A DNA stretch of 64,000 nt from an uncultured Planctomycetales bacterium (GCA_964374105.1 CAYJXI010000001.1:7743-71742); one strand, 5' to 3'; positions 15,601 to 42,600 are shown, counted from the stretch's first letter. Made by a program: numbers and translations. The notes: generated from the sequence alone by a model not told the origin.

Positions 15601-18600
15601 ACCGGTCTGGTTTGAATTACTTACTCTCTTGGCGCAGAGATTGGGCAAGCAGGTATTGATCCCTGTTAAGGTGGCAGGCATGATCTTTGGTATAACAGAA
15701 AGTTTACAGGCTCAGCATATTCGGCCAATTGAATTGCCTGCTGAATTAAGCGTACTGCGTGTAGAGATGTTTAGATTTCCATCCAGGCTCTGGTATGACG
15801 ATCTTGGATTTACAAAGATTGATCTAGCTCAATCGTTTGAGCTGGAAGTATCCGGACAATTCTATATCTTCCCAGCGAAAAGGGATGATCAGCGCGAAGA
15901 TAATCCTGTGACTCCTGAGCCCACCGCCACAAGGTCGGGTGAACCGCTTTCAACAGAACAAGAAGACAAACTTCGGGAATACCTTAAACTCAAGGTAGGG
16001 CAGTTCAGCAGTTATGCGGACATTAAGGTAGACCAGATTGAGGCAACCATCAAGGCCTTGCGTGAGGCGGGCTTGAAAGCCTTGGCGAAGCGGCTGGAAG
16101 AACTCAAAGAAGCTCGTAAAATCCGCGCTGGGCCCAATGATGTTTTTGAGGAATTAAAGAATTTCGGCATTGATCTCTTGGCCTTCAACTTTAAAGACTG
16201 GATCATCATCCATCCGGAATTAGTAGAAACCCCCCATCGCATTCGCTTGCATCAAATCCTCACCCATGAGACAGCAGCAGTCCTTGGCTTCTCACATAAG
16301 ATTAACCTCATGTTTGAGAAGGTCATCACCAAAGAATTCACACAACAAGAACCAGGGTTTATTGATTTAGGTGAAAGAGAAAAGGTGTCTATCCCCGTTT
16401 CTGTAGTTGACAAAGTCGAGACTATCACTTTTAGAACTCAACCAGTTGGTTATCAAATCAAGAACAGACAGGTCATTCGGTTAGAGAATAGATTAAACCC
16501 GGATTTTGCATTGGCAAAATCCGCCCGAAGGGCCGCTACGGCATCCCGCCATGGCGGGACGCCTAGCGGGGTTAACCCCGCCAAAGGCGGCCGAAGGCAA
16601 AATTTGCAAAGCACTTTTCTGTATAGAAACAATCAACGAGGTCAAAGTCCTATTGCAAATTTTGGGTTAAAAGGCGATATGGCTAATGCTGTTCTCGGCA
16701 GAGGCAAGGGAGTCACTTTGTGGGAGGGCGGGGCTATCCAATGCAATTATTGTGTAATTTGGGATAGTTCAAGACGACAAGGGGCGATCATCCACACGAA
16801 TTATCTCCAATCCAAAGACATGATGGTGTCTTTCTTGAGAAATATTTTAGAGATATTAGGAATTCCATTAGAGGATAAGAGCTATTTAAGAGATCACGTT
16901 TTGACAATGATAGCTAATGCTCCTCACCAATCGGTCTTTGTCAGTGAGATGTCAAAGAGAATCGAAACCGTGCTGGCTGACAGCTTGGATGAATTAGGAT
17001 TGCCTCGGCTTAGGACGGATACCAGCGTTGCCTGGTATGTTACTCATATTCAATTTTTCGTAGATAAAGGAATAATACGATCAAGCTATAAGATTAACGA
17101 AAGGCAATTTTATCAAGTGGACTTAAAAGAATTGTCTAGATTGCGAAAAATGGGAAAAATGGGGACTGTCCCCATTTTTGAAGCCTCCGCGCCAATCTTC
17201 CGTGCCCTGCCTGCCGGCATAACAGGACCGCTTGAAGCCTTCGCTCCAATCTCCCGTGGCTCCCTGTACCACGTAGGGTACAGGGCCATGAACCCAACGT
17301 GGTTCATGGGGGTCATGAGAATTGTTTCCCAAACGACAGCGGCCCTTTTAAAATCTTCCGTGGCAGGCCCCGTAGAGAAACTTTACGGGGCAGGGAGGTC
17401 GCCGCAGATACCACTTGCACAAATCAAGGGACCGGTTATGCCTCACCATCCGTGGCAGGTGACGAGCATTCACCAGGGCCCATCTGCGGCGGCCTCTTCT
17501 TATCACAAGTCACAAGACATCCTTCGACTTCGCTTGGGACAAGCAAGTCAGCCCGCCCTGGTCTTCGCAACTGGCGGGCCAGGGAGGTCAGCCCGCCCCG
17601 GTCTTCGCAACTGGCGGGCCGGGGAGGTCAGCCCGCCCCGGTCTTCGCAACTGGCGGGCCGGGGAAGTCAGAAGACCCAAGATTCAGGACGCACAACGCA
17701 GAACACAGAACCCAAGACTCTGAACTCATTTGCACCTATCGTGATTGTGGGTTTAGGGATTGCAACGGTTGTCATCATCATGACGATCAAGGCTAAGAAT
17801 CGACTCATGAAGATAACCAAAGACTTTTTAAGTATTGCGACATTGATGGCCGTTGTTGGAAGTCTTTGGACGATTTGGATAAATCGTGAAAAAGAAGTTG
17901 AAGTGATTCCAAATACTCTTGATTCCCTCCCCCTTGTGGGGAGGGTTAGGGAGGGGGTGAGGTTACAGTCTTCACCCTCCCCTAGCCCCTCCCATCAATG
18001 GAGGGGAAATACAGGATTGGGAGAACAGGACGATTCAGCAAGAATTGTTTCGAGTGTCGGCCCAGAATTCTACAGAAGTGTCAGTGCCATACTCAACAAT
18101 TGGTTAGAGGAGAGAATGAAATATATTGTGATTGAATTAGCACCCAGAATGAGTCAAGAACAAACACGGAACCTCTTTCATCTCCTGAGGGCCATGCAGG
18201 AGGTCACAGAAACAAGTGGCTTGAATACACCTCTGCTGGGTGTAGATCGTATGGCCGTTGGCTTCCACGAAAGTGATCGTTTCAAAGCGAATCGTCAGTA
18301 TCGAGGGCCTGCCCGCGGGTGGCTGCAGGTGGAGAAGAATACCATTAAGCATGTGGTGGAAAATTTAATGCCTCGATATCCAACTCTTATTCCCATCGTT
18401 GTGAAAGAAGCCGCAGATTATCATAAGAGGGCAATGACCTTTAAAGATATTCAAAGATTAACGCCAGATGAACTCGGGGTGTTAGTCAGACAAAGGATTA
18501 AATTTGATGTGGCGGTTCATCTTGCTTACTTTATAGAGGAAATGAGTTTAGGTGTCAGGAGGTTAGCCACTCAACATGGTCTTCTCTTGGATCGAGAAAA

Positions 18601-21600: not shown

Positions 21601-24600
21601 TAACCAAATCATCGCTAGTCAATCGAAAAACGAAGACGATGAGTATAGAAGAGAACTCATGAACCGACCCGATGCTGCCGCGCGGGCCATGGTGACCAGC
21701 TTAGGGGCCAATCGTTATGTTGTGACCTACGACTTTAGGATGATCAAGGCAGGGATGGCAGCCTTGATTACCGGGCTTGCTCATGAACTTATTGCTCACA
21801 CTTATATCATGGAGAATATGAAAGAAAAATTATCACCTCTGGAAGAGGAGAGACTCGCTTTTGCTTTGGAGATCAAATATATTGAGGTGCTGTTAGCCGA
21901 CCGCGATCTGGTTGAACAGATTACCTTGGGCGGCAGGAATTTAACGATCTACAACGATTTTAGAAATCTATTGGAATTTGAAAAAGCCACCCTGGCTTGG
22001 ATTGAAAAGGAAATAAAACAACAGAAGGCCGCGCAATTAAAGAAGACAATCGCCATCATTGGTGCAACAGCACTGACAGCGGGAGCAGGCGTCTTAGGGA
22101 CTTTACAGGTCATCAAGTTAAGAAGATTCAAGCGCGTTCGTCTCGTCTTTGATGCAATCAAGGGTCAAGGGGCATTTGCTCAATTGGATAAGCTTTTACG
22201 AAAACAATTAGTCGCCCAGTTTACAAAAGGTAATCGTTTCGAACGTGCGACCTTAAAGCAGGCCGGGCTGTCCACAACCCAGAGAGAAGAATTTAAAAAG
22301 AATTTATCCCGGATGATGAGTGAAGAGGAGGAAGACGAAGGGAATGAAGGCGGAGTGATGCTGGGAAGCGGGAGAGGCTTAAGTGCAGTGCAGGAGAAGA
22401 TGGTGAATCAGGCGCTGGTAGAGAGCGAGGTGAAGGAGGTCAGTGAGGAGGAGTACCGAACATTGGATGCGGGAGGCGAACTAAAGTCCGAAGGGGTGGT
22501 GATCCATAAGGTGAGCGGGTTGAATGCGAAGATCGAAGAGATCGGGCAAAGAGAACATACGATGTTTGGGGATGAGGTGGTGACGTATGCGAAGGTGAAG
22601 GAAGATGGGAGCAAGCATTTGTACTTGGATGAGCGGGAGATGTATGTGGTGATGAATCTGAGTGAGAGGTTAAGGAGGCAGTGGGGAAGTCATGAGTTAT
22701 TGCACTTAAAGCAGCCGATGCTGAGTGAAGAGCTGGTGCAGTTGCAGGTGCCAGTGGATGAGGTGTTAGAGGCGAGGGCGAAGTATCTGGGGTATGAGAC
22801 AGGAGAGGTGAAGGCCTTGGCTATAGTGAGGAAGGAAGGGGTGAAGGAGAAGGAAGTGAGTAGTGCGATGGCGGTGGCGAAGGAATATGGGGTAGTGCCA
22901 TCAAAGGTATTGGCGTTATCGAAGAAGCATGGACTGCCGGTGGTATTGACGGGCGAGGCGATGGGGCTTGCACAGAGGTATAAGACGACGATGAGTCAAG
23001 TAGCGTTGTGGGGCAAGAAGTATGTGGGGATTTTGAATAAGGCGGGGTTGAGCCGGGAAGAGATCGATGAGATCTGGCGGACGTTAGGGTATGAGCAGAA
23101 GGAAGAGGTGTTAGATGCGATCGAGAAGATATTAGAGATTCATCAGGAGATCGAAGAGAGTGAAGTAAAGTTTTCGATGAGTGTGATAGAGCTGGTGCGA
23201 GCGTATCGGGTGGTAGGGGATATGGATGAGCTGCGGGAGCTGGTGCGGATTGCGATCGAGCATCCGATGAGCGGGCGGGGATATGGGCAGGTAAAGCAGC
23301 GGTTCCCCGAGTATGCGAGATTTAAGAAGCTCTTGGAGATATGGGAGGAGTATGTGGAAGCGGGTCATCCGATCAGTGCCGAGATCATAGAACAGATGTT
23401 TGATAAGAAAGGGCGATCGCGGTGGGTGAGTGAGGAGGAGGAAGGTGAGGAAGAGGAATGGCATGAGGGCGGGGTGATGCTGGGAAGCGGGAGAGGCTTA
23501 AGTGCAGTGCAGGAGAAGATGGTGATGCAGGCGCTGGTAGAGAGCGAGGTGAAAGAGGTCAGTGAAGAGGAGTATGCTGCGTTGGATGTGGGAGGAGAGT
23601 TGAAGTCCGAAGGAGTGGTGATCCATAAGGTGAGCGGGTTGAATGCGAAGATCGAAGAGGTTGCCCAAAGGGAATGGACATCGTTTGGAGATCGGTTGAT
23701 CACGTATGCAAGAGTAGAAAAGGATGGCAGTAAGCACCTGTACCTGGATGAACGAGAACTGAACGTGATTATGTATTTACCATCCCGCATCCGTCAGCAA
23801 TGGGGCAAACATGAAATGGGTCATCTTAATCAACCATCTTTACCTGAAGAAAGGATACAGAAGGACGCTCCCATTGAGGAAGTCCTTAATTCACTAATCC
23901 ATCCAACTGAACCTATTGTCAAAGTATATGATGAACTCGGCGGGTTGAAGATATCAAGGAAAGATCAACTCTTTAAAGATAAAGAAGGAAAGAAGAGGCC
24001 GTATACCCGCAAGGGCCAGGTGTTACACACCTTCCATCTTGCTGTCCAAGAAGATTTGAAAGCAGTTATTGATCAGAAGATTCTACCTGCTCTCACTACA
24101 AAGAAAGCAAAAGCGAAGATAGAAGAAAATCTTCAGCTGATATTTAGACAGACCGGGGAATTTGGGAATATTAAAACGATCAGTATTTCCAACGGGATGT
24201 TGACCCCACTTTTCTTTGAAGAAGACCGCACTTACGTAGATGTGAGCCTGTTATTGATGCCTTCCGCTCCCTTTAAGGAATTATTGAGATTGGGTTCTGC
24301 CCATGCCTTTGAGAAGAGCCGAATATATCGGGTTCAGACGAGTAAAGGAAGCTTTATTGATGAGTATAAGGCCGATAGTGTGAGTGTGTTTGAAGTGGCT
24401 TTAAGTCTTCTAGCGGCGGATGAAAAAGTGCTTAAGCAACTGGAAGAGGCATTCAAGAATTTAAGCAAAGCTAATTGGGAACTTTCAGTTTATCAAGAGC
24501 TTATCGATGCCCTGCGGTATTTAAGAAGCCGCTTTGTCGTACAAAAGTATTTGTTAAAGGCACATAACATTTATGACATTTACGATTGGGAAATAGATCC

Positions 24601-27600
24601 ATTTCGGGATCGGTATGTGTTGAGTCAACAAAGAAAAGAGATATTAACCCGGGCGATCAAACTAAGAGAATCCTTACGAGATATTGTCGTAAGAAGAAAG
24701 AACATTATTTTGAGATTATTAGCCAATGATCCAAGATACATTGAAAAGAACAAAGAGAAAGAGAAAAAGAAAGAAAAAGAAAAGCGAAAAGCCATCAAAG
24801 AGCTTGCCCGCAGGAAATTCCTCTTACCCAGAAAAGCCGAGGTTGACCGGATAGCTCATCTGTGGGAAAGGCCGTATGAACAAATCGGCCAGGCCTTGAT
24901 TTCCTCAAGAAATCATCATTACTTGCAAATTATCCGATTAGTGCCCGCAGAGTTCATGCGGCTTTTGGGCATTCTTATCGATGCACGTTCTTTATCCAGT
25001 CATCTTCTTAAGAGCGGTTATACAAGGAAAGAGTTAAGCCAAGGATTTGGGATCTTCTTTAACCAAGTTGGAACAAGTCATGTCTCCATTGAAAGTCGGT
25101 ATAACGAGATGATGGCAGCCCTCATTTTATATCGCGGGGCTTTTAGCGAAGATCTCTTTAAGGAAATCTTTGCCCAACTGGAGGTTGCCGAAAGAAAGCA
25201 ATTGACGTCTTATTTAGGAGAACAGGTTTCGCGGGTCATTAACTATGAGAGAACTTATATGGGAATCATCAAATATCTTGCGATGTTCCCAGGAGCAACG
25301 GTAAAAGATTTGAAGGCTCAAGGATTATTTGCGGAATTGTTCGATCTGTTTATTAAGATTCACACAATGACCGTCCAGAAAGAAGAAGTCATTGAGCTGA
25401 CAGTCAAGGAAATGCGAATCAAGGCAAAGAAAGTCTTGATGACAAGACTTCTCTCCCGTTATGGTTGGGCCTTAGGGTTATTTTTAGCTCCGGGATCAAG
25501 GGTTGATAGAAACCAAGTGATCTCTTTTATTGGATATTACAAAGAACAAATTCACAGGATTGTCGATTTTTATCTTGACGGAACATTAGTGATGGATGAA
25601 ATGGTTTTAGAATCCATCAGTCATTTATTGCCTTACCTAGCCCTGGAAGGTTATGACAAGCGATTAGGGGTGGTGAGAAAGAAAGTCAAAGATTTTGGAT
25701 CACTTGAACGATTGTTTAGCGTGCCGTTGGAGTCCCCAAGTGAAACTTTAGCTGTAGAAAGGGCAGCGGTAAAAGCCATGTTAACCGCAGGGGATGAAGA
25801 GACGTTACGAAGGGTATTTAATGACTTGAAGAACTTCTATCAGACCCAGCGTAAACCAAAAGAAATCATTGCTGATTCCGCCATCGATTATGCCTTGGCC
25901 CTTATTCAGGGGGTACAAAAACTTTTACAAAAACCTGTCACTCAAGAACAACGGCAAATGGTCGCATCGATGGTAAAGGAGATTGCCTCTCATCTGATTC
26001 ATAAAGAGTTAACGATTACTTCAATACAAACTTCCATGGAAGAAAAGGCCAAACGGATCATCACCTCCATTCAGAATCTCCCTCAAGAGATTTTAACGGA
26101 AGCGCTGAAAGTGTTGACCGATCATACCATTCTTGATTTTATATTTTTCCGTGATGAAATGGCGGTTATCCGAACCGATGTGCTTAAAGTTGTTGATGCA
26201 GAAACCTTAAGTAATTATTTTTCAACCAAGAGCGAACGGGAGGTGACTTCAAGTCTTGCTCCTATCAAAGATAATATCTTGAAAAAGAAGGTTTTGGCTG
26301 CCATGAAGGCTACAGAAGTGGGTAAGATGCCCGCGATGGCCAAACATGTTTTAAGACGGGAAATTTACCTCAGGGAGACTATTCATTTACCCAAAGAGCT
26401 GACCGCTTATTCAGGGGAGGCTGTCCCGAATTATTACGCTATCTTAGGAGTTCCCATGAAAGCCACACCTTTGATGATAGACCGATCATTCAAGGCGCTT
26501 TCCTTCTTGTATCATCCTGACCGGGCTCAACCTTCTGAGAAGGCCAAGGCCGAAGAGGAGTTCAAACGGATCAATGAGGCTTACCAAGCGCTCTCTGATC
26601 CGCAGAGAAGGAAGGAATACGATGAGAGTATACCCAAGTATGCTTACTACTATCCGTCCAAGCCATGGTTAGAGTCGGATGTGGATCTGGATGCTCTCAT
26701 AGCCGAATCCGTGGTTTCGGAAAAGAAAGAAAAAGAAACGCCAAGCGAAGGTCAATACAAAACCAGTCCGTATCTTCCAGTCCGCTTGAGTGATCTTAAA
26801 AAATGGTCGAAAGCCTTGAGTGAAGATTTAGAAAAAGAAACTGGAGAAGCAAAAGAGCCCAAGAAAAACGAACCCCAAGGTCAAGGAGGGGCGATCCTTG
26901 CTTCAGGAAAGAGTTTGAGTGCTAAACAAGACTCGATTATCCGCAGGGTATTGAAGGAAGCTGAAATTGAGGGTACCGATATCATCGCATTTCGTATCCT
27001 TATTACCGAAAGTCCATTATCTGGAATGAATGTCAGAATCCAGGCCATCAAAGATTTCAATCTTAAGATCCGCCAATTGGCTGAGGAAGAGCAAGTGCCA
27101 TTTAAGGACAGAGTCGTGACCTACGCTTATGTAGATAAGTCAGGCGTAAAATATCTCTATTTAGATAAAATGGAGAGGGAGATGATCATTCATCTTCCTA
27201 AACATTTGCGTGATCAATGGGCAGAGCATGAAATGCTGCATCTTGAAAACCCAAGATTAACGGAAGAAGCAGTGCAAAAACGAGCTCCTATTGAAGAATT
27301 CTTGCGCGCCCTCTATCCTCCCGAAGAACCTACCATTAAAGTTTATGATCAGTTGGGAGGGTTGAAAATCACAAAGGTGTCATCGACGTTTACTGATATT
27401 GAAGGTGTAACGAAGGATGTTTCCTTCAAGGGTGAGGAGATCAGCACTTATCATGTTTCCTTAAGGCCAGATGATGCGAGGCATTTAACGAGAGACTTTG
27501 AGAAGATTTTACATCGTCGAATTAATAAACCCAGTTCGGAGAAGATAGGATGGAATTTTAATTTCTTGACGGGGGAGATCAGCCGGTTTGGTGCGATAGA

Positions 27601-30600: not shown

Positions 30601-33600
30601 CAAAGAAACCCGAAAGATCCGCGCCGGGCCAGTTGAGATCTTTGTTGATCTTAAATCCCAAGGAATTGATTTACTGGCCTTTAATTATGAAGGCTGGATC
30701 GTTATCCATCCGGAATTGATTGAGGCCCCAGACCACCTCTACTTGGACCAAGTCCTCATTCACGAGACAGGTGCCGTCTATGGCCTTAAGCATAACATCA
30801 ATCTCATTTTACAGAAAGTCGTCACTGAGAGACTGACGGAAGAAGAATTCCAAATGATCGATAAGGCCATTAAAGAAAAAGAGAAAAAAGGTACTGACTA
30901 CGAGGGGGTTGCAAATCAAGATTATGCCAGGATGGCCCAGCAACTTAAGATGGCTCGGAATTCCTTAACCGCTCAGTTCCCCGAAGAATTCAAAGTAACG
31001 ATTCCGGGACTCAATGTCCAAGAAAGAGAAGCCTTCTATTCTAAGGCCCGCAGTAAGACATACGATGGATTTAGATATCTTACGCACGGGTTAACATGGA
31101 TAACCTTTGAACATGAACAATTCCCGCATCTTCTCTTTCATGTCTATAAGACAGATTATAATCTCGCCTTTATCTCTTCCATTCTTCGAATTAAACTAGC
31201 CCTTTATCTTTTAGGACAAAGGCAGGTTAAGGTTGACGGGATTGAGATGTTAGAGTTTACTGGCGAAGACTATCAATATGCTTTCTTCGATCAAGTGGTA
31301 ATAACGAAAAAACCAAGCACTATCGGTGACTTTGGAGAAGGGGTTACCGATTATGTGTCTTTGAAGCCGATTATCGATAATTTCCTGAAGGCTGCTGAGG
31401 CAAGGATGTTAAGAAAAATTGAGCCTCTGATGTTCGATGAGGCGGCAATCCGTAAAGTATTAGAAGACTATTTTGAGGTGAATTTCCCCGATACGAGTTC
31501 ATTGTATTTTGTTCTTCCAGCGGTCTATCAACAAGCGAAGGAAAACTGGGAAACCGAGGAAGAGGCTTTATTAAAGGTCTTAATGGCGGAGAAGTATCTG
31601 CAAGAGCAAAGTAAGAGACTCTATGTTCCATCCATCGATGAATCTGAAGCCGTCGCTAGTGAAGGAGAAACAGCAGAAAACGAAGAACATTTACCAAAGA
31701 TAGAAGAAGCCGTTCAACAGGAAATCGATCGGATGGATATTGAGAAAGGATTAAGTGAACAAGAGGCACAGAGATTGGTGGAAATTTTAAGGCAGTATCA
31801 CCATATCTCTATTAAGGCAGCAGAAAATGAGTTGGTTACATTCGGTTATTATGAAGATAAAGAAAAAAGTGGATTGAGGTTGGTGCGCACGATTATATCC
31901 CTTCAAGGACGCAGGGTAGGAGTTATCGATTTTATGATCGATCATGATGGAAGTCTTGCCAAAGCCGATTATGGATTCAAGCCACATTTTAAGAAGATGG
32001 AGCGGGATATGAGGCTTGAGGAGGTTCCGGAAAATCAGGATCTTGCTATTTATGTTGAACCAAGGTATCAAGGTTTAGGCATTGGCCGCACTCTGATGGG
32101 TCTGGCTTTAAGGATAGCGAGGCAATTAGGGGTTAAGGAATTCTCGTTACGAGATGTGTCCGTAGGTTTCGAGCCGAAAGCCGAGAAAATGGGTTTCAAG
32201 AAAAATGAACATTCGGGTCGTCTCAACGAATATTTCTGGCCTTTTGAAGAAAGAGAACTGCCTAGGATTCAGATGAAAATAAGCGGCAGGTCCCAGGCCC
32301 AGGGATTTGAGCCCAAGGGATCTATTCGCTCAAAACATCGCGGGGAAGTGGATTTAAGTGAAGAAGAGATGTCGAGGATCATGGCTAACCCACAGACTAA
32401 GGTCACCCAGAGATATAACAGAGAGTGGATTTTAAGAGTCATGGGTGCCTTGGAGGCCTTTGGCGGACAAACAACAGTTAACGGGGAACAGTTATTGAAT
32501 CGGATAAAGAAACGTATCGAAGAGGCGATACTGTTCTATGAGAAAGAGCGAGATCAATGGCAGAGGCAGTATGAGGCTACGATGGATCGAAGACAACGGG
32601 GATTGTATTTTAAGTATATGACAACCGCGGAAGGGATGATCAAAGAGCAAAGGGAACAAAAAGAGTTGTTAAAAGGCTTGTTTGCTGATGTCAGGAGTAT
32701 TTATCAAGTGGTCATCGACACCATTGGGAAGTTTAAGATTCATTCGGTGATATTACCGGAATCGGAACAATCTAAATTGATTAAAGGTCTTGATAGATAC
32801 ATCGTCATGTGGGTGAATCCTGGGGAAGATTCTATCGCTGAAATAGCCGGCCTTTTGGATTATTTAAGAACTCAGCCCCAGGGGATCCTGCTTGTCAGTG
32901 CAGCCTTAGGGCATGAGGCATTAGAATTTTATTTAAGAAAACAAGGGATCGAGGCTGATTTAGCCCATGCCTTGGCGGAAGATTTTGAGCGTATGATTCT
33001 TAAGGAAGACCTAGATACCCCCAAGAGTCAGTATGATTTGGCCATTGAAAGATTTTTGAATGAGAAAATATTGGGTGTTGTTGAGGTAGGGGCACGGCAT
33101 GCCGTGCCCCTACCTTTGACCAAGTCTGTAATTGCTGGGGATAGCTCGCCTCGTGCCGAGGACATCGGCGCTGTCATCGAACCAAAGACAGCCGAAGGTG
33201 AAGTAGTTATTGTGGAACCAGTTACTGCGGAAACGAAAATTGAAGAGAGGCCAAAGGAAGAAGCCGTTGAACAAAAGGCCTTAGAGGCAGAAGCAATTGA
33301 AGAACGAATTGAAAAGCCGGCTGTTACTGTTGAAGCCCCAACTCAAGAGCCAATCAAACCAAGTCATCAGCGCAAAGGGATTACTGAGGAGAGATTCTTA
33401 GAGGTTGCCTTGAATCATTTGGAGGATGAGAATCCGCGCGAGACCATTGCTCTTGAACTCGGGATTAATATTCAAACAGTTTCTTATTGGTTAAAGAAGC
33501 TGGGATTAGCTGGGGAAGTTATTGCAAAACGATTCAAGAAATCTGTAGCCGAGAAGGGAGAGAAGAAAGAACAGAAGAAGGAAGACCAGAAGGAAGGGGC

Positions 33601-36600
33601 GGCGATCCCTGAAGTTAAGGAAGAGGCAGCGACCGGTGAGGTCGTGAAAGAAATTTCGATACTAGCTTTTGAAGAAGTTAAGATCAAAGCGCCAAGCGTG
33701 ACTGAAGAACAGAAAGAGTTAACCGCGGAAGAATTGTTTGATTCCGTAATTCAAGAAATGGTTGAGAATATGCAAGTTTATATTGAATTAGAAGCTGATT
33801 TTGATGATTTCTGGACCGAAGTGACATCTGGGAAAAAGATTTCTTCTGAGGTGGCGCAAGCTGTCCGCCGGCGGTTGATTAAGGAGTTTGACGTGCATGA
33901 TCCTCAGCAATTTTTCAGTGTACTTATGGCCAGTCATGGCAAAAAGTATGGTTCTTATAAAGAGTTGTTTGAAGCCACAAATGTAAAGACAAAGGTGATA
34001 CGAAGAATTGATCGTGCTTATAAGCGCTTAACGGGCTTAAGTTTGATTGAAGCGACACAAGGTGGGGCAGAGGGAGAGGATCAAGAAGAGCAAACCCAAG
34101 AGCGACTTCCCAATTACTATCATCTTATTGGTATGAATACCCGAGGCCGCGCTGAGGCGCCGACACAGGGCGATGTTCATCGGTTCCTCTTAGGCAAGAA
34201 GCGGCTGACAGGTGAGTTAAAGGGACTAGCCAAATGGCTCGAAGGTCATCTTCCGACTTATCAAGGCGATACATTAGAAGATTATCGCAGAGAATGGACC
34301 AGGGTTTACGGTAAAGAAAAAGGTTCACCCAATCGTTCTGAACCAACCGCCACCCGTTCGGGTGAGCCGTTGAGTGAAGAGCAGAAGCGTCAGCTGAGGG
34401 AATATCTTAAACTCAAGGTTGGGCAATTCAGCAGTTATGCGGTTGTCGAAGACACGGCCATTGATACAACTATTAAAGCCCTAGGTGAGGTTGCCTTTGA
34501 AGTCTTGGCGAGTCGCTTAGAGCAACTCAAAGAAACCCGTAAAATCCGCGCCGGGCCGAATGAGATCTTTAGTGAACTTCAAGCTCTCGGCATTGCCTTG
34601 TTAGCATTCAATTATGAAGAATACGTCATTGTCCATCCGGAATTACTCGCCGCAGAAAAGCAAACCCGTCTAAGGCAGATTCTTGCTCATGAAACTGGTG
34701 CGATTTATGGTCTGGAACATCAAACCAATCGATTATTAGAAAAAGTCATCACTCAAGAATTGACGGCTGAAGAAAGGGAAGCGATCCACAACGAAATTGT
34801 TAGTTTGGCTCAGCCAGAGGAAGAACAGTTAAGATCCTTCCGCGAGCTTATCTTAACGAAGATCACCAGTGACGCCATTAGGCAAAAGGCAAAGCAGATA
34901 TTAACCAAGGCGCGATTAAGGGCCCTCTTACAGCCATCAGCTAAGCATTACACCAATGAATTTAAGCCCATTAAAGATATTTTTGAAAATTCACGATACG
35001 GAGAAACTATTAGATTAGTCAAAGAGGATACTAAAGCTATTGTTGAGGCCGTCAAAGAGATGAAACACATCTTGGCAGTTAATCCACAGAGCCATCTGTT
35101 TGACATCGAACAATGGGATGAAAGGGTCTATGCTCCTTCCATGAGAGGAATGTTCGATCAATTTGAGAAGAAATCACTGACCATTGAGGGACTTAAAAGA
35201 CAGATGCAGAAAATAGTAGAGCCATTTAGTGTAGCCTTTGATCTTACGGAATTCATTAAAGAAAGCGAGGAGCTCGAATTCTATCATTTGGTTGAGATCG
35301 GCGCTTGGGTTTTAGCCAAGATCATTATTCCGCATGGGTTGGTGATTCAGGTTTCTCCATTTGAATCCAACAAGCTGATTAAGGGCCGGGTCCTTAAGGA
35401 TCGAACCGAATTGATTACAACACATGGGGCAGGATTCTCAAGGCAGATTCCGGTTTATACCGTTGATGCTAAGATTTCCGAATTTGGTTCAGGTATTGCT
35501 AGGCCAGATTACATTGTCATGCCATTGAATCTCCAGCATGAAGAACCCCTTATTCATTATCAAAAGCTCTTTAAGGCCTATAGGGAAGGCCGTTATCGTC
35601 CTAAACCGTTTGATATTGACCCGCACGGCTTTTTGCTGGATTGGGTGATGATCAACCTGGTTGGATCCAAGACGACAAGTGAGGTACAGCAACTGCTTAG
35701 AAAAGAGGCACTTCAAGAAGAGATCGCCCATTCCGATACCTTTGCCTTTGTGGAAACCCTCTGGGACAGGAAATATCATTACTTTATGAGGAGTGAAACT
35801 ATCCAATTTGTCCATACGATTTTAGAACCCTCGGGCTGGTTAAGAGAGATGTTCAATCAGCATAAAGAGAAGCCTGCTCTTCACTCACTCACTGCTGATG
35901 CGATTATTGAAGTAGAGGCCAAATTGCAATCTTTGATGAAATCACCTTACCCAGCCCATACGGTCTTGGAGTTCTTGTTAGCCAGTCTCTTCCCTGAAAC
36001 TGCCAAACTTGAAAAGCCCCAATACAAGGTTGCCTATAACACGCTGACTGTTTTGTTGGCCGTCGAACTTTTGAATAAGCCAACCATTGAACTTAAAGAC
36101 TGGTTTGATTTCCTCAAAGAGGTTTACCGGGATCTTGATTTGTTCAACAAACTCCTACCGGAAACTGCAAAGGAAATTTACGAACGGCATTTCTACAGTC
36201 AAGAAGAACGAGTAGCAATTCTAAAAGGAAAAGGTAACAGTCACAAAGAAGCTGGCAGGTCCCTTAAGGATTCTAAGGAAGGGCCGCAGACACTCGCCGC
36301 GTTTGAACCGCTGACATTCATTGCCTTGTTAGCGGGTTTTGGGATTTTAGGAGTTTATATGACCAGATGGGTTGCCGGCAGATTCAAGATCAAAGGGTCT
36401 GATCAACAACACATGCACCGGCGTGGATTTATAAAATTAAGTTTAGGAACTATGGGCTTGGCGGCATTCGCTCCGTTATTGACATGCTGCTCTTTAATTC
36501 CAGGTTCATCGCCGCGTAAAATTAACTCAGATCATTTGATTCTCATCGGTATGGAACACAATGTGTTCGGGGATCCGCAACATCCCGCGAGTGTCTTGCA

Positions 36601-39600
36601 GAGACAGCTTGCTATGGCAGCCAGCCAAGGCGAAATCGTCTTAGGAATTGAGGAAGTTGTCCGAAACGATGCCTTTGAAGAAGAATTTATTAAAGGCCAG
36701 TACGGCTTCAAGAAAGGATTGATCTTTGGATTCGATGAGGAATTCCCTAAGCATTATATTCACACACTCCTCAACTTCGGTCTCCTAGCTATTGGTACGG
36801 GGGGAACGGCAACGGATGAATCTGAAAAAATCATTTTAAGAAGAATAACAACCTCGGCGAGGGTGTATTTACCAATTTTTATAAAGACAAGCTCAGTCGT
36901 TAGAGAATTCTGGAAAGAGCTACCCCGCCAGTTACCGAAAGATGAGGACGGTTCGCTCATAAGAGAATTATATGAAAAGATTGATCGTTTTGTGGCCTCT
37001 GAGAAGGATTCCAACCTTAGAGATTTTCAGACAAAGGCCTTTAAGGAGTTTGAAACTTTTGGTTCCAATATCCTTTGGTCTCGAATTTATAAGATTATGG
37101 CTTCTGCCATGACCGAGGAGGCTATGAAGCATTACAAAGAAATCCACTATCTTAAGGAAAAAATAAATGATTTCCTCAAGAATCCTGTTGAAGAGGAGAA
37201 CCAACGAATTATCATGGAAGAGTTAAATCACTACTGGCGTGAATCCTTTATTATCAAAAATATGAAGGCCATCGCGGATATCGCTATTGAAAAAAGGCTC
37301 CCTGTCTATTTCCTCATCGGATTTAATCATGTTAAGAAAATTGAGGAAGCTTTAGGGCAAAATTATCGGAATCTGAAGATTTTAACTTTTGAACATTTTG
37401 AACAATTCCCACAAAGGCTTTTACCCAGAATCCCAGAACGTGTTTCGGATGCGTTAAACAAACACCGGGTGTTTGGAGAATCATCCGGGCCTCAAGATGC
37501 CAACGAAAACGGCTTGCCGCGAGAGGTTGTTGATTTAGCGGTGTTGTTGACAGAAAGGATCACTAAGCAGCCGATTCAAGACTGGGCCGCAGTTAAGGTT
37601 GATTCTAAGAAAGTCCGACAGGCCATGGTCCTCTTAGGGAATGAAAATAAATTAAGACAGCGGTTGGCTGAAAGCGGGGTTCATTTTGTCCGCGCTCCTC
37701 CCAAGGTTAACATCCTTTGGGATGCTGTTGGGGTAGCAAACTACCGAGATCCCTCTGGCCGTCTTTTTGTCATTCTCCCGCAGAAGACAACCACCGAGGC
37801 GATTGCCCATGATCTTTGGGCGGTTATGAATCCTTCCCTGCCTCACTCCATCAATCCGATCAAGATTTCAAAAGAAGAATTAGACACAGAGACACTTGTT
37901 GAACTGATTGTTGAGACGACCCAAGATACCAAGGATATCTTAAGCCTGCTTGAACATCCGGGCCTGTCGGTTGAAGGCAAGGCCTATATGCTTATCGCCC
38001 TAATTCGCATTGGCCTACAGAATTCTATGCAAACCATCAGCCTCCAATTAGAAAACGAACCCTCCTCACCACAGGACTTGCTGGGTATGCTTGCAAATGT
38101 GCTGGGCCCGGTCTTAGCAAATCTCTTGAGCGGATCCTCCACATCCTTGCTGGAGAAAATCGAAAAGGATTTGGCTAATAGAGGGGACCAGATCATTCCT
38201 GTCTTTGAACGCGCCTTGGAGCTTTTTAAGACGGTGGAAGACCAACGGCAGCGGTGGTTTATTTACAGCGTCTTGAGTGAGATGAAAGAAAAGGGTCTCG
38301 CCGAGCTCATGCGCTATTTTGATAATCCGCCTAACCCTGCCGACCAGGAGTTCATTGTCTACGAGATCACTCAAATGGGTCCGCCTACGTCCATTGAGTT
38401 TGCTCAAAGTCATAAGTTGAAGGACTCGTATGAAACCGTCTTGAACTTTATTATTCAAGCCTTCACCCGATTTGTGCCGCCGATGTTAATGAGATACATA
38501 TTGCTTATGATAGCTAATGAAGGCGAGAAAGAGATTGTCGCTGATATCGTGCGTAAGATGGCGGAAAGCGATAAATCGTATTTTAATAAAATTTTGGAAT
38601 TCCTTAAGGCACAAGGCTCTCCTGATGTTGTGGAAAAATTAAACAAATATCTAGCCAAGGCTGAGGAGACGGGAGAGCAGGAATTCCACTTACCTAAGCT
38701 CAACGTGAATGAACTTAAGATAAGTGCATTTAAGAGTAGGGTAAAGAGGACGATTAAGGGAATCAAGGGCCTTGAGGATCTCCACACCCGGTTTGAGGAA
38801 GGGTTATTGGTGGCCAACGGTGAGCTCAATGATCTTAAGCGCGTGGTTATTCACGGAAAATATGCCGAAAATCGAAAAGCCGCAATTAAGGCTATTGAGG
38901 AAATCCTTCAAGTTGTAGCTAAGACCAAGTTGGCGGGAGGGCAAGTGAGGGTTAAGGGACAAATGATCACCAATGAGGAAGTGTTCCTGCTTCTCATGAC
39001 CCTTTTCCAAGTTCTTGATGAAGATCCAGAAGAAGTTGTTTATAAGGAATCGGCAAGGGCAGCGGTTGCGGTCATCCTCTTATTTATCACGATTGAGGAT
39101 GAGGATTTCCGCTGGGGTTATAAAGAGCGCTATCAATCGTATTTGGATAAACTGCTTAAGTCGCCGCGTATTGATTCGGTAATTGATGCCTTGATTGCCA
39201 TCCGCACCGATAAAGAAAAGGATGACAGGGTCTTGAAGGCTGCAAGGGCTATGCTTACCGATATTGTCAAGGCCCGCGGTCAGGGACCGGATAGCCTCAA
39301 GAAGAATAGGGAAAATGGAGACAGCGCCCAATTCCCTGAAGATTCTACCGCCACTCGTTCGGGTGAACCGTTGACAGAGGAAAAAGAACGGCAATTGAGG
39401 CAATACCTCAAACTGAAAGTTAAAGACTTCTCTGGTTATGGGGTGGTTAATGATACCGCGGTGGATAAAGTCATCACGGCCCTGGGTGAGTCCGGATTTG
39501 AGGTACTGGCGAAGCGGCTGGAAGAACTCAAAGAAACCCTCAAGGTCCGTGCTGGACCGAAGGCGATTTTCGATGAACTCAAGGCCCAAGGCATTGACCT

Positions 39601-42600
39601 GTTGGCCTTCAATTTCGATGTATGGTTGGTTGTCCATCCAGAGTTGCTTAACCCCGCCGAGCAAACCAAACTTCAAGAGATTCTTGCCCACGAGACCGGT
39701 GCGATTTTCGGTTTACCACACGAAGTCAATCGACTTCTAGAAAAAGTCACGACCCAACAACTCACTCAAGAAGAAATCCAGGATCTTTTTGATGCCGCCC
39801 AGGAGATCCTTAAATCACAAAAGATGACTCCCAGAAGTCCTGCTGGCCGACAGGAAAACGGAGCCTATCCTGCCTCAGAGAAGATCGCAAAAGAAGATAT
39901 CATCATCTCAGTGCCGTTGTTCTTCCTGGAAGGGACGGCGTACAATTCCATCCGGAAGTACTCTCTTCGACTAGAGAAGCTCAGAGGGATTGGTCCTCTC
40001 ATAAGAAGTGGACGATTCTTTATCTCTAAGTACTTCCTGCCAGAACTTATTGGTGTGGCTAGAAAATTACAAGAGCGGAAGGCGAATGCCATTCATTTTG
40101 ATGTTCAACAAAAAGAGGGAATACAAAGATTGGGAGTCCTCGGACAGGATATCACTAGGATCTATAATCCCAAATTAATCCGGCGGTTACGCCAAAACGG
40201 CGTGACCCTTCCCATCGAGGTACATCTTATGTATTGGCAACCCTCTTCCCGGTATTTGAGGGCTTACAGGCAAGCGGGGTTAGGTTCCCAAGATACCATT
40301 TTCATTCATCATAACGCTTACGAAGATCCTAAGGAATTAGTTGAAAAATTGGCGCTGATCCGCACCCTGGGGATAAGAGCGGGTATTGCCTTGAGTCTCC
40401 AATACGGCACTGAGGAATTGACCGAAGAGATGTTGATTTCTGCTGATGCCATTCTCTTGTCGGCGGTAATGGAAGGAACACGTGGAGGGACATTTGATTC
40501 CCTGGTGGCTCAGAAGTCGAAAGAAATTTTATCTAGAAATTTCCAGGGAAGGATCCACATCCAAGGCGGGATTAATAAAGAGACTATTGGAATTGCTGCC
40601 TCAGGTGGGGCAACGGCTTTCGTCTCCGGTACGTTTGTGACCCAATCACCGGATATGACAAAGGCCATGGGGATCTTAAGAGAAGAGGCAAGGAAAGGAT
40701 ACAAACAAATAACTGCCGGATACCAGGCTGTGCGTAGCGAGGGGATGGATAAGGTGTCTAGTCTTAATTTTGAGGTTCTGGCGGGCAAGACTGTCTTAGT
40801 AACAGGGGGCGCTGGCTATATCGCCGCTGGTGTTATCCATGATCTATTGAAGGTGAATACCGAGGTGGTCATTTACGACAACTCTATGCGGGATCGGGAA
40901 GAAATCACCAAAATGCAAGGTATCACGATAGTGGAAGGGGATTTGAGCGATCAGACATTACTTGAAAGAACGCTTAAGGAGCAAAGAGTTGCGGCTGTTG
41001 TCCACTTGGGGGCCTATATTGCCGCAGGGAACTCTGTGAAGAATCCTGGGAAATATTTCTTTAATAATGTTGTCAACACCCTGACCCTGTTGGATAGCAT
41101 GGACAGGGCAGGGGTCAAATACCTTGTGTTTGCCTCCAGCGCCGGTGTCTATAGCGGAACCCTATTCAATGAATCAGGATTATTGGATGAGAACATTACC
41201 CCGGATCCGCAGAATCCTTACGGTGAAACCAAATATCTGATGGAACGCCTGATGCAGGATTATACAACAAAGAAAGGGATCCGGTTTGTGGCTTTGCGTT
41301 TCTTCAACGTCGCCGGGGCGTTTGAGTGGCAAGGAAGATGGTTCGGCGAAAACCATGAAGGGCCTGAGACTCATCTTATCCCACGGGCGATTAAATCTTA
41401 TTTATATGGGAATGAATTGATCCCATTTGAGCTTTTTGGTACAGATTACCAGACACGTGACGGGACGACAATCCGAGACTACATTCATCTTTTGGATTTG
41501 GCTGATGCCCATATCCGGGCTTTGATTCATCTTTTTAATGGGGGATTGAGTTTCATATTGAATCTAGGGACTGGTCAAGGGTCGACTGTTCGGGAAGTCG
41601 TTGAGGGGGTAGCTAAGATTATTAAACTGGAAGAAAACAAGGAGTTCCGAGTTAAAGAGGGGCCACGGCGTGCAGGAGACCCGCCCATCTTGCAGGCCAG
41701 TAGCCAGAAGGCCTTAAAGCAGTTGGGCTGGCAGGTTAAGAGAGATTTACAACAAATTTTGGAGGATGCCTGGGTTTTCCATAATCTAGAGAAACAACAC
41801 GGCTGGTGGAATTTGAAGACCATCGCCCCCGAAGATCGCCTGACCACAACTGAGGCTGAGTTTAGAACAATGGTGACTAAGGAGTTGAAAGCGAATGCGG
41901 TCATCACACCGCAAACCCGGTTTGAAATTCTCTTTAGGTTGTTGATTGATTCGCTGGTTGAAGGAGTTAACGATTCTACATTTAAGTCTTCAGCACAATC
42001 CAGGGCGTTAGTCGAAGGAGCCAGAGGACTCAAATCCCAGCCGGGCGAGTTGATGGAAGTCATCCACAGCAACGAGAAATTCTTTGCTGATTTTGAGAAG
42101 TTCTTAGAATCCCAATTTGTTTCAACGGATCCCTCCCGCCTAGAAATCATATCTCAACTTAAAGAAGACCTTTCCTCAACAACTCTTGGCGGGGAATCCA
42201 ATCTAGCGGACGTGAGCGGTCATCGTGGAAGCCCAATCCCCAGCCGATTGGCCGAGATGAGGAAGAAAGGGAAGGGAAAAGAGGATCATCATCCTGAAAG
42301 AAAGATAGATCCGAGGGAAGGGCCCAATGGTCTTTCTGCGTATGAACCGTTAGTTATGCTTGTCTTGTTGGCGGGAGTGGGAATCTTAGGAATTTATAAG
42401 AAAAGGTGGTTTGCCAAGAGATCGGCTATCTTTGAAGGGCGTGTTGATCATCAAAGAGAATTTGAGATTATCGATCGGATTTATTCTTATGTCTTATCTG
42501 GTATTGCTCGATTCCAAACCACGTCAGTACTATTATTAACAATAACAACATTCCTAGTGCCATTTCCAACATTTTACTTGTCTCCATTGTTCTTGCCAGG

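Follow-up and report, generated by a model that had tools for sequence, protein, structure and literature searches.

We describe an unannotated family of protein domains of about 150 residues, found only in long or giant proteins of Candidatus Omnitrophota and in at least one protein of normal size. Four dispersed copies of this module, each bearing the signature HExxAxxGxxH, lie in the 64,000-nt stretch of DNA analysed here in full (the window). On the basis of a predicted structure, we judge the module to be a variant of the zincin fold that is new, is confined to this lineage and has a constrained site with two histidines, and the family may help to process or organize these enormous proteins.

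RESULTS

A giant reading frame hosts the four modules

One stop-free frame on the + strand spans the whole window (nt 2–64000; 21,333 codons) and is open at both ends; in no other frame of the window does an open stretch reach 300 aa. As the frame stays open across all 64,000 nt, the window is a fragment of a giant multi-enzyme gene of more than 64 kb, described here by an ORF scan, Pfam matches and hydrophobic segments. All four modules are in this frame and ORF, which rules out that they are separate genes. Pfam matches are sparse and amount to nine distinct annotated regions in the window (PRK, CTP_transf_like, ChaN/Tiki, two DnaJ, GNAT, Ribul_P_3_epim, NAD epimerase and GT5/GT1), accompanied by 20 hydrophobic transmembrane (TM)-like segments. 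Single hydrophobic segments part the stretch with GNAT and DnaJ from that with NAD epimerase and Ribul_P_3_epim, and an arrangement in which stretches of cofactor-dependent enzymes are parted in this way is more easily reconciled with cleavage into separate products. Besides the HExxA modules the ORF contains internal divergent repeats. The motif HExxH is enriched about 10-fold in the ORF (10 observed versus 0.9 expected) and occurs 21 times, versus 1.9 expected, in the proteins that bear homologues, with counts of 0–3 for scrambled control motifs; small zincin-type modules are therefore a recurrent building block of these giants.

The four copies

Copy 1 (aa 5306–5455; nt 15917–16366), copy 2 (aa 10137–10288; nt 30410–30865), copy 3 (aa 11447–11597; nt 34340–34792) and copy 4 (aa 13113–13263; nt 39338–39790), all on the + strand, have HMM scores of 261.5, 265.0, 266.5 and 262.8, respectively. 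Each is further supported by alignment, copies 1, 2 and 4 also by BLASTP and copy 3 by AlphaFold2. The HMM and the alignment confirm the four dispersed copies of the original prediction, made from the DNA sequence alone, with starts that were off by 1–4 nt only, and an HMM built from the four copies found no fifth in the window. In the frame starting at nt 2, all four begin with (E/D)(P/S)TATRSGEP(L/M)(S/T), of which TATRSGEP is invariant (nt 15923–15946, 30419–30442, 34346–34369 and 39347–39370, + strand). The HExxAxxGxxH site reads HETAAVLGFSH in copy 1 (nt 16265–16297), HETGAVYGLKH in copy 2 (nt 30761–30793), HETGAIYGLEH in copy 3 (nt 34688–34720) and HETGAIFGLPH in copy 4 (nt 39689–39721), again on the + strand. 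Residue numbers 1–151 used below are those of copy 3, the sequence that was modelled, in which the site comprises H117, E118, A121, G124 and H127. In the 21,333 residues of the ORF this motif occurs exactly four times, compared with 0.004 expected from composition. The central His is thus missing from every copy, as had been proposed; the proposal that it is replaced by Ala or Gly was right about Ala, which occupies position +4 throughout, whereas the Gly sits at +3 (in copies 2–4; Ala in copy 1).

Aligned over 146 aa from TATRSGEP, the copies are 53–67% identical in pairwise comparisons, and in the four-copy alignment that had been suggested as a check all keep the motif. BLASTP E-values between copies range from 2e-44 to 4e-55 (2e-44 to 2e-49 for copy 1 against the others). 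Overall nucleotide identity is 60–67%, but only 37–50% at codon position 3 compared with 70–77% at positions 1 and 2, from which we conclude that these are old duplications retained by selection at the protein level. Copies 1 and 3 share 72% identity over their first 102 nt, less than the approximately 80% originally given for the N-terminal 100 nt or so. A GC-rich 40-nt repeat lies near copy 1; it was considered as an RNA element and rejected, having no Rfam match and a folding energy no better than that of shuffled sequences.

Distribution and conservation of the family

Scanning 1.84 billion proteins in full with HMMER (E<1e-3) retrieved relatives of the module in 29 proteins, which are mostly very long and multi-enzyme, and 33 modules were aligned. 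For nine of ten relatives looked up the source names Candidatus Omnitrophota, the tenth (ENA) being without a name, and the four GTDB loci with the module are all from Omnitrophota; every relative whose organism is named by the source thus belongs to this group. Neither Pfam nor NCBIfam holds a model covering the module, and the 33-module set provides a seed alignment for the missing family. When 5.8 billion proteins were searched through a word index, neither the 4-copy nor the 33-sequence alignment gave a match within the limit of 8000 candidates, which was probably filled by common charged words.

Within the 33 aligned modules, H117 is conserved in 31, E118 in 32, A121 in 32, G124 in 29, H127 in 31 and N130 in 26. 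The Ala therefore defines the family and is not the decay of one copy, and none of the 33 keeps the middle His, a point on which the original prediction had asked for a check. The N-terminal peptide has the family consensus D-x-T-x-T-(R/K)-(D/S/N)-G-x-P-L. In one homologue H, E, A and the final H are all gone at once (RKAGLISGLPY), and in another, P0018, the last motif His is replaced by Glu, which is also a metal ligand; the joint loss and the swap fit a site whose residues work together.

One relative, P0012, is a 598-aa stand-alone glycosyltransferase-9 (GT9) protein with the module at its extreme N-terminus; its Met is preceded, 20 codons earlier, by a stop in the same frame. The module is therefore present in a protein of normal size, and polyprotein processing cannot be its sole role. 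No partner domain or TM segment was found consistently adjoining the module, and a constant juxtamembrane position was rejected, as a hydrophobic segment lies within 100 residues of a minority of modules only. The family alignment contains no conserved candidate cleavage motif besides the module's own N-terminal peptide.

Predicted fold

AlphaFold2 with the 33-sequence alignment gave a model of copy 3 with a pLDDT of 96.0 and a pTM of 0.90; a model from the four copies alone (pLDDT 57, motif region below 50) was discarded. The predicted module consists of the N-terminal peptide, of which residues 3–5 form a β strand, followed by three helices and a minimal zincin core. The core is made up of a strand (IRAGP, residues 69–71), a backing helix (74–82), a hairpin (AFNxxGWIII, strands 87–92 and 95–98), the H-E-x-G-A helix (105–123), which bears H117, E118 and A121, a Gly turn at G124 and a helix (127–138) opened by the last His, H127. 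Minigluzincins have the topology strand, backing helix, β hairpin, active-site helix and following helix, and the predicted β1-helix-β2-β3-helix(HExxA)-Gly turn-helix order of the module is this minimal zincin topology. The structure prediction that had been suggested as a check thus came out for a zincin-type order, and a purely helical scaffold was not found. In a Foldseek search against the PDB, the chains at ranks 1, 2, 7, 14 and 26 of 350,542 are selecase or projannalysin, although these matches are non-significant (E 0.7–4.6, TM 0.30–0.49); PprI is also among the PDB matches, and weak BFVD matches include proteins annotated as metalloprotease or SprT.

The best-ranked PDB neighbours belong to the minigluzincins (selecase, projannalysin, proabylysin), with which the module shares a core of about 85–100 residues and the order of elements. 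They represent a minimal soluble zincin scaffold related to the M48/M56 catalytic domains, to which WLM/SprT domains have been likened (PMC4559962). However, minigluzincins are free-standing and have a complete HEXXH, whereas the module has HExxA in all copies, matches them non-significantly, carries an additional N-terminal strand and three-helix extension and is embedded in giant proteins.

Comparison with metzincins

In sub-threshold matches the only recurrent Pfam families were metzincins, aligned on the motif: Reprolysin_2/4/5, M10 and M54 match 2–5 of the 33 members, all under the gathering scores, and the NCBIfam archaemetzincin model matches two of the 33 (E 0.066). A PDB profile search aligned the motif with 'HEIGHLLGLSHDD' of ADAMTS-5 at an E-value of 0.11, which is below significance, and gave non-significant matches to snapalysin (E 1.3) and stromelysin-3 (E 2). 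The likeness to the metzincins (M10, M12B adamalysins/ADAMTS, M54, snapalysin M7) lies in HE-x-G-[H>A]-x-(L/F)-G-L-x-H, compared with HEIGHLLGLSH in ADAMTS-5, and in the AlphaFold2 model, where the helix stops at a Gly and the last His comes after the turn. The module departs from the zinc-binding metzincin consensus HEXXHXXGXXH/D, which supplies three protein ligands, in the second His, which is Ala in 32 of 33 members; it retains H, E, G and the last H. In the family alignment no column up to 100 residues past the motif has Met in at least 30% of the sequences, so that a Met-turn, in which a conserved Met lies beneath the metal site, was not found, and the C-terminal part is much smaller than in metzincins. 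The original description of the module as zincin- or metzincin-like thus holds for the order of the predicted fold but not for membership of the metzincins, for which both the second His and the Met-turn are missing.

DISCUSSION

Considering the predicted fold together with the conservation of the site, we tentatively favour, at somewhat below an even chance, the idea that the module is a peptidase-like unit acting on the giant protein itself through a constrained two-histidine metal site. The site would then be a constrained functional centre rather than a decayed protease, in which the first His and the His at +10 hold a metal ion and the third ligand is supplied from elsewhere. This ligand might be the conserved Asp in position 1 of the N-terminal peptide or E134 on the following helix; H99 of 'VHPEL' was considered as a replacement third His and rejected, as family members have N, D or H there. 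The conserved Glu would serve as general base, and the small G120–A121 pair may leave room for a segment to pack where the second His usually lies. In the weakest step of the proposal, the module would cut or clamp linker peptides between the enzyme cassettes of the giant polypeptide.

This would be analogous to the peptidases for release or processing that are built into other very large multi-domain bacterial proteins, such as the MARTX cysteine protease domain and the releasing peptidases of polymorphic toxins (zincin-like, HINT and others). There too small peptidase-fold units lie between functional cassettes, much as the module is dispersed between enzyme regions; however, those peptidases have intact sites and demonstrated cleavage, whereas the site of the module is non-canonical, its cleavage is hypothetical, and the module occurs also in a protein of normal size. 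The absence of the second zinc-binding His from every member counts against the peptidase reading, as does the fact that all zincin matches are sub-significant (Foldseek E of at least 0.7 with TM 0.3–0.5, PDB profile E of at least 0.11, Pfam below the gathering cut-offs). The lack of a constant neighbour counts against it too, and the presence of the module in the stand-alone P0012 counts against processing as its sole role.

A role in binding peptides without catalysis is almost as probable as the peptidase-like one. It is a realistic possibility that the module is a pseudo-protease that has the zincin fold but neither binds metal nor cleaves, and whose conserved surface and N-terminal peptide form a peptide-binding or docking device that might fold or hold linkers, pair modules with one another or regulate a neighbouring enzyme cassette. 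Loss of the second His abolishes tight zinc binding in the HEXXH sites of classical zincins, and here the canonical second His is Ala in almost the entire family; the GT9 enzyme offers no polyprotein to cut, a conserved candidate cleavage motif other than the N-terminal peptide is absent, and the DnaJ domains in the same inter-TM stretch suggest chaperone-assisted assembly. However, a pure binding surface would have no need of the Glu and both His, which are the most conserved residues of the family (32 of 33 and 31 of 33 each). Moreover, the sole clearly degenerate member lost H, E, A and H at once, and the His-to-Glu change in P0018 is a typical ligand-for-ligand swap.

The reading of the module as a peptidase-like unit also has to be weighed against an active zincin-fold hydrolase whose substrate is external or not a protein, for example peptides of prey cell walls or the stem peptides of peptidoglycan, in place of the giant protein; this appears decidedly unlikely. 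It would agree with the predicted fold and the conserved Glu, and Omnitrophota giant proteins have been proposed to degrade prey envelopes (10.1101/2023.11.21.568195; PMC10066038). However, the modules in the window lie among cytoplasmic-type cofactor-dependent enzymes and DnaJ rather than beside adhesin or glycoside hydrolase domains, and they have neither a signal peptide nor a constant TM neighbour.

It is very improbable that HExxAxxGxxH is a chance look-alike on a fold with no kinship to zincins, for instance a helical scaffold or a nucleic-acid-binding domain of the R3H type: the only PDB sequence match of the 4-copy profile is indeed the R3H domain 1whr (H-R-V-A-A-Y-F-G-M-D-H, E 0.83), Pfam R3H weakly matches one of 33 members (E 0.15) and all zincin matches are sub-threshold, but the 50 Foldseek PDB matches listed include five minigluzincin chains and no R3H, the residue four before the His varies (Q, K, R, E, N, A) and is not the Arg of the conserved R3H R-x-x-x-H, R3H has a strand after GL where the model has a helix, and the β1-αA-β2-β3-αB order with a helix ending at Gly is that of zincins.

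The ORF of the window resembles the giant 'multi-enzyme metabolic cluster' ORFs of Omnitrophota (10.64898/2026.06.07.730766; 10.1101/2023.11.21.568195) in its length of more than 64 kb, its Pfam domains of sugar and nucleotide metabolism, DnaJ, TM segments and divergent repeats. It has the size (>20 kb), the many enzyme Pfams and the TM segments by which giant ORFs are recognized, and its link to Omnitrophota is through its homologues only, as scans of GTDB representatives and JGI metagenomes with peptides from the window did not turn up its contig. Both studies that catalogue the Omnitrophota giants treat their cleavage as an open question, one of them also as regards the cleavage points (10.1101/2023.11.21.568195), and C39 and S8 peptidase domains have been discussed as possible processing enzymes (10.64898/2026.06.07.730766; 10.1101/2023.11.21.568195). 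In these two reports the word 'zincin' is absent and the HExxA module family is not described. With tens of thousands of codons, such genes rank with the most poorly understood of all known coding sequences, and the module, which is small and expressible and has sharp boundaries, a conserved N-terminal peptide and a strongly constrained protease-like site, offers a concrete handle on whether their products are cut. If active, a zincin fold that always has Ala for the second His but retains the catalytic Glu and the remaining two motif residues would widen the range of known zincin metal sites.

A more far-reaching and rather unlikely proposal is that the modules represent a new class of two-histidine metallopeptidases with the Asp of the N-terminal peptide as third ligand. 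Alongside the B-type and C-type modules of this ORF, which bear HExxH, they would form a built-in machinery by which Omnitrophota giant polyproteins are cut at defined sites into individual enzymes. For homology between the module and repeat family C, which lies in the ORF too, there is no support (hhalign E 0.04, with two of 60 shuffles scoring as high). Repeat family B, a separate family in this ORF that retains HExxH, may be a distant paralogue of the module; the evidence for homology is only suggestive (hhalign E 0.03, with none of 60 shuffles scoring as high), and the B-type modules carry the motif HExFHxxGxxE.

Results

A single stop-free frame spans the window (2–64000, + strand, 21,333 codons) and is open at both ends; no other frame contains an open stretch of 300 codons. 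A frame without a stop across 64,000 nt means that the window lies inside a gene that is 21,333 codons long or longer (>64 kb), which is also why the ORF listing for this region is nearly empty. Four places along this frame had been named in the original prediction as copies of a module with a metzincin-like motif lacking the central histidine, and these indeed correspond to closely related segments of about 150 residues in one shared frame. Using an HMM trained on the four copies, they were placed on the + strand at aa 5306–5455 (nt 15917–16366, copy 1), aa 10137–10288 (nt 30410–30865, copy 2), aa 11447–11597 (nt 34340–34792, copy 3) and aa 13113–13263 (nt 39338–39790, copy 4). They score 261–267 bits with this HMM, built from the same four sequences, which found no fifth copy in the window. 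Copy-versus-copy BLASTP E values range from 2e-44 to 4e-55, 59 columns are invariant, and the motif HExxAxxGxxH occurs four times in the ORF versus 0.004 expected. The copies are 60–67% identical in nucleotide sequence; for the starts of copies 1 and 3, thought to be ~80% identical, we measured 72% over the first 102 nt. Identity at codon position 3 is near saturation (37–50%) versus 70–77% at positions 1 and 2, indicating old duplications in which selection has preserved the protein. The module is thus shown to be a genuine domain, present four times and kept under selection.

No match to the module was found in a word-indexed protein search. When 1.84 billion cluster representatives were scanned exhaustively with HMMER, 29 proteins passed E<1e-3, and seven of these had E values below 1e-10; the 29 are mostly long (up to 6,885 aa), many are truncated by contig ends, and five contain two modules. 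Of ten relatives looked up, nine carry the NCBI label Candidatus Omnitrophota/Omnitrophica or originate from JGI metagenomes, and the tenth is from ENA. A homologue sub-alignment, scanned against 185,579 species representatives, yielded four loci, all in Omnitrophota MAGs, one of which (L005) is a fully open 20.4-kb stretch on a 57-kb contig. In these searches the family is restricted to Omnitrophota, and H-E-x-x-A-x-x-G-x-x-H is its family-wide signature. One relative, P0012 (598 aa), opens with the module and continues into a Glyco_transf_9 domain; 20 codons before its Met lies an in-frame stop. The stand-alone 598-aa protein at locus L001 (67–1863, Logan SRR22387846), with an N-terminal module and then a glycosyltransferase-9 domain, has a strongly hydrophobic helix after its N-terminal peptide. 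About a dozen of the homologues P0002–P0029 carry R-(I/V)-G-x-(S/P)-(I/V)-D about 45–50 aa past the motif; the four window copies show this further sequence only weakly or not at all.

Conservation was counted in an alignment of 33 modules with the numbering of copy 3. Outside the motif, the best-conserved residues are D1, T5, P100 and N130 (26/33 each), G8, L11, G72 and N91 (27/33 each), R70 (23/33), P73 (31/33) and E134 (22/33, plus four Gln); within it, they are H117 and H127 (31/33 each), E118 and A121 (32/33 each), G120 (25/33) and G124 (29/33). The Ala at the position of the second zinc-binding His thus shares with E118 the highest conservation in the family. It had been asked whether homologues elsewhere keep this His, and it is present in none of the 33 aligned members. 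Since the Glu and both remaining His are most conserved, are lost together with the Ala in one member (P0023, RKAGLISGLPY), and in another show a swap of the last His to Glu (both copies of P0018), the site is probably functional. In P0005 the first His is replaced by Arg. H99 of 'VHPEL' was considered as a substitute ligand and rejected, as this position varies among N, D and H in the family.

AlphaFold2 was uninformative with the four copies as input (pLDDT 57), and with the 33-sequence alignment it gave a pLDDT of 96.0 and a pTM of 0.90, all five models reaching at least 95.0. The model comprises a strand (3–5), three helices (13–32, 38–50 and 54–65), a strand (69–71, the IRA of IRAGP), a helix (74–82), the AFNxxGWIII hairpin (strands 87–92 and 95–98), a short helix (100–103), a helix bearing H117, E118 and A121 (105–123), a turn at G124, a helix that H127 opens (127–138) and a last helix (143–150). 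The smallest zincins consist of a strand, a backing helix, a hairpin, the active-site helix and a next helix, and in the model the module follows the same order from residue 66 on; that the motif helix stops at a Gly is a metzincin-like trait. A Foldseek search against 350,542 PDB chains gave no significant match; among the matches listed (E 0.74–5.1, TM 0.19–0.49), the minigluzincins selecase or projannalysin hold ranks 1, 2, 7, 14 and 26 (TM 0.30–0.49, none significant), and the zincin PprI also appears. Among predicted viral structures, some of the weak matches carry the annotation metalloprotease, metallopeptidase domain or SprT. With the family profile, the top PDB sequence was ADAMTS-5 (E 0.11, liHEaGAlfGlsHeen aligned to VAHEIGHLLGLSHDDS), followed by snapalysin and stromelysin-3. 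NCBIfam and Pfam hold no model for the module, and Pfam scans of individual members stayed below threshold, with Reprolysin_2/4/5, Peptidase_M10 and M54 receiving most of the hits. These structural and sequence lines, each weak alone, jointly and consistently point to a zincin fold and argue against a purely helical scaffold; a minimal zincin-like fold is predicted with good confidence. The zincin part of the original prediction is retained, and the metzincin part is not, because two defining features fail: the second His is lacking, and the family alignment has no conserved Met within 100 residues past the motif that could form a Met-turn.

Complete HExxH motifs are also in excess, with ten in the window ORF versus 0.9 expected (scrambled control motifs, 0–3) and 21 in 28 non-redundant homologue-bearing proteins versus 1.9 expected (about 11-fold; controls, 0–3); P0009, P0010 and P0024 carry a canonical HExxHxxG elsewhere, besides their HExxAxxGxxH module. 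The ten lie mainly in two internal repeat families on the + strand. Family B has five copies with complete HExxH (698–1177, 4070–4405, 5714–6082, 6881–7348 and 9875–10372) and the pattern ...APPVVVT.DF.KT.GSI.AYN....ILYIHL.VL...EGHExFHxxGxxE..AR..T(I/L).YL; clusters of 3–4 hydrophobic segments lie within about 60 aa after its copies 2 and 3. Family C has three copies (22346–22777, 23465–23905 and 26882–27322) with the pattern ...SG+xLSA.Q...KHLYLD...R.QW..HE(L/M)xHL.(Q/N)P..., the N-terminal 'SG+xLSA.Q' of which is similar to 'SGEPLSEEQ' of the module. Searches of Pfam and of PDB sequences matched neither family. Profile–profile comparison (hhalign) of the module with family B gave E 0.03 and a score of 18.4, which none of 60 column-shuffled controls reached (10.7 ± 1.7), aligning IRAGP..F..L..GI.L.AFN..G.IIi.P.L with APPVVVTADF.KT.GSI.AYN.K..ILYIHL.VL.; the link to family C was not significant. 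The alignment with family B suggests that this family may be a paralogue of the module that retained the second His. The HExxH excess and the repeat families together make small zincin-type modules a recurrent ingredient of these giant proteins.

Discussion

We tentatively favour a putative role for the module as a peptidase-like unit whose substrate would be the giant protein that contains it, rating this below an even chance. A candidate metal site would consist of the two His and a ligand from elsewhere, for which D1 of the N-terminal peptide and E134 are candidates. The modules lie in hydrophilic linker surroundings; copies 2 and 3 share one stretch between TM-like segments with DnaJ and GNAT domains, and copy 4 lies about 90 residues before the ribulose-phosphate epimerase and NAD-dependent epimerase. 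Single hydrophobic segments divide the cofactor-dependent regions, an arrangement that is topologically awkward for one uncut polypeptide. The stand-alone P0012 implies that polyprotein processing cannot be the module's sole role. Ranked second, and still a realistic possibility, is a pseudo-protease with a docking or clamping role, for which the site would form a non-catalytic peptide-binding surface; the fixed Ala speaks for this, and the retained Glu and His sit less easily with it. An outward-directed hydrolase, also putative, we consider unlikely. That the module is a non-zincin look-alike would agree with the lack of a significant Foldseek match and is very improbable given the joint fold and sequence lines.

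Peptidases discussed for Omnitrophota giants are C39 and S8, and zincins are mentioned in neither giant-gene paper (10.1101/2023.11.21.568195; 10.64898/2026.06.07.730766). New here is a predicted zincin fold with an altered yet conserved site, rather than a new principle. The module offers a sharply delimited and testable entry point to the question whether giant bacterial proteins get processed, and how.

The window ORF fits both the 'multi-enzyme metabolic cluster' class described for Omnitrophota giant proteins (10.64898/2026.06.07.730766) and the giant genes reported by West-Roberts et al. (10.1101/2023.11.21.568195). Scans of the GTDB species representatives and of the JGI metagenome collection did not recover its source contig. 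Pfam matches along its 21,333 residues are scattered over only about nine regions: cytidylyltransferase-like, PRK/uridine kinase, ChaN/Tiki, two DnaJ, GNAT, ribulose-phosphate 3-epimerase, NAD-dependent epimerase/dehydratase and a GT5/GT1 glycosyltransferase. A hydropathy scan gave 20 TM-like segments, and self-comparison revealed many families of divergent internal repeats. A unit of ~1,150 aa is tandemly duplicated (23357–26818 and 26747–30235, +; aa 7786–8939 and 8916–10078; 35–45% identical), each closed by a DnaJ domain, and module copy 2 begins about 60 aa past the second unit. The last ~3,900 aa (52334–64000, +; aa 17445–21333) are divergent tandem repeats (21–39% identical) that recur at intervals of about 700 aa and multiples of that, reach past the window end and have no Pfam match. 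A hydrophobic repeat, L(A/S)A(F/Y)EPL....LLAG(F/V)GIL (36224–36391 and 42266–42430, +; 50% identical over 56 aa), flanks the stretch with module copy 4 and both epimerase domains; these segments may be single-pass anchors or cassette delimiters. Two segments of 33–37 aa lying 34 kb apart (17900–18010 and 52220–52330, +; aa 5967–6003 and 17407–17443) are 78–82% identical, much closer than the other internal repeats. Finally, a GC-rich 40-nt unit (GTCAGCCCGCCCCGGTCTTCGCAACTGGCGGGCCGGGGAG) with an inverted repeat inside each is repeated 3.1 times at 96% identity (17547–17671, +) in this 44%-GC ORF. It has no Rfam match and folds with no better energy than shuffled sequences. Although its period is not divisible by three, three units (120 nt) preserve the frame, and the repeat has the look of a small insertion or expanded element tolerated in frame.
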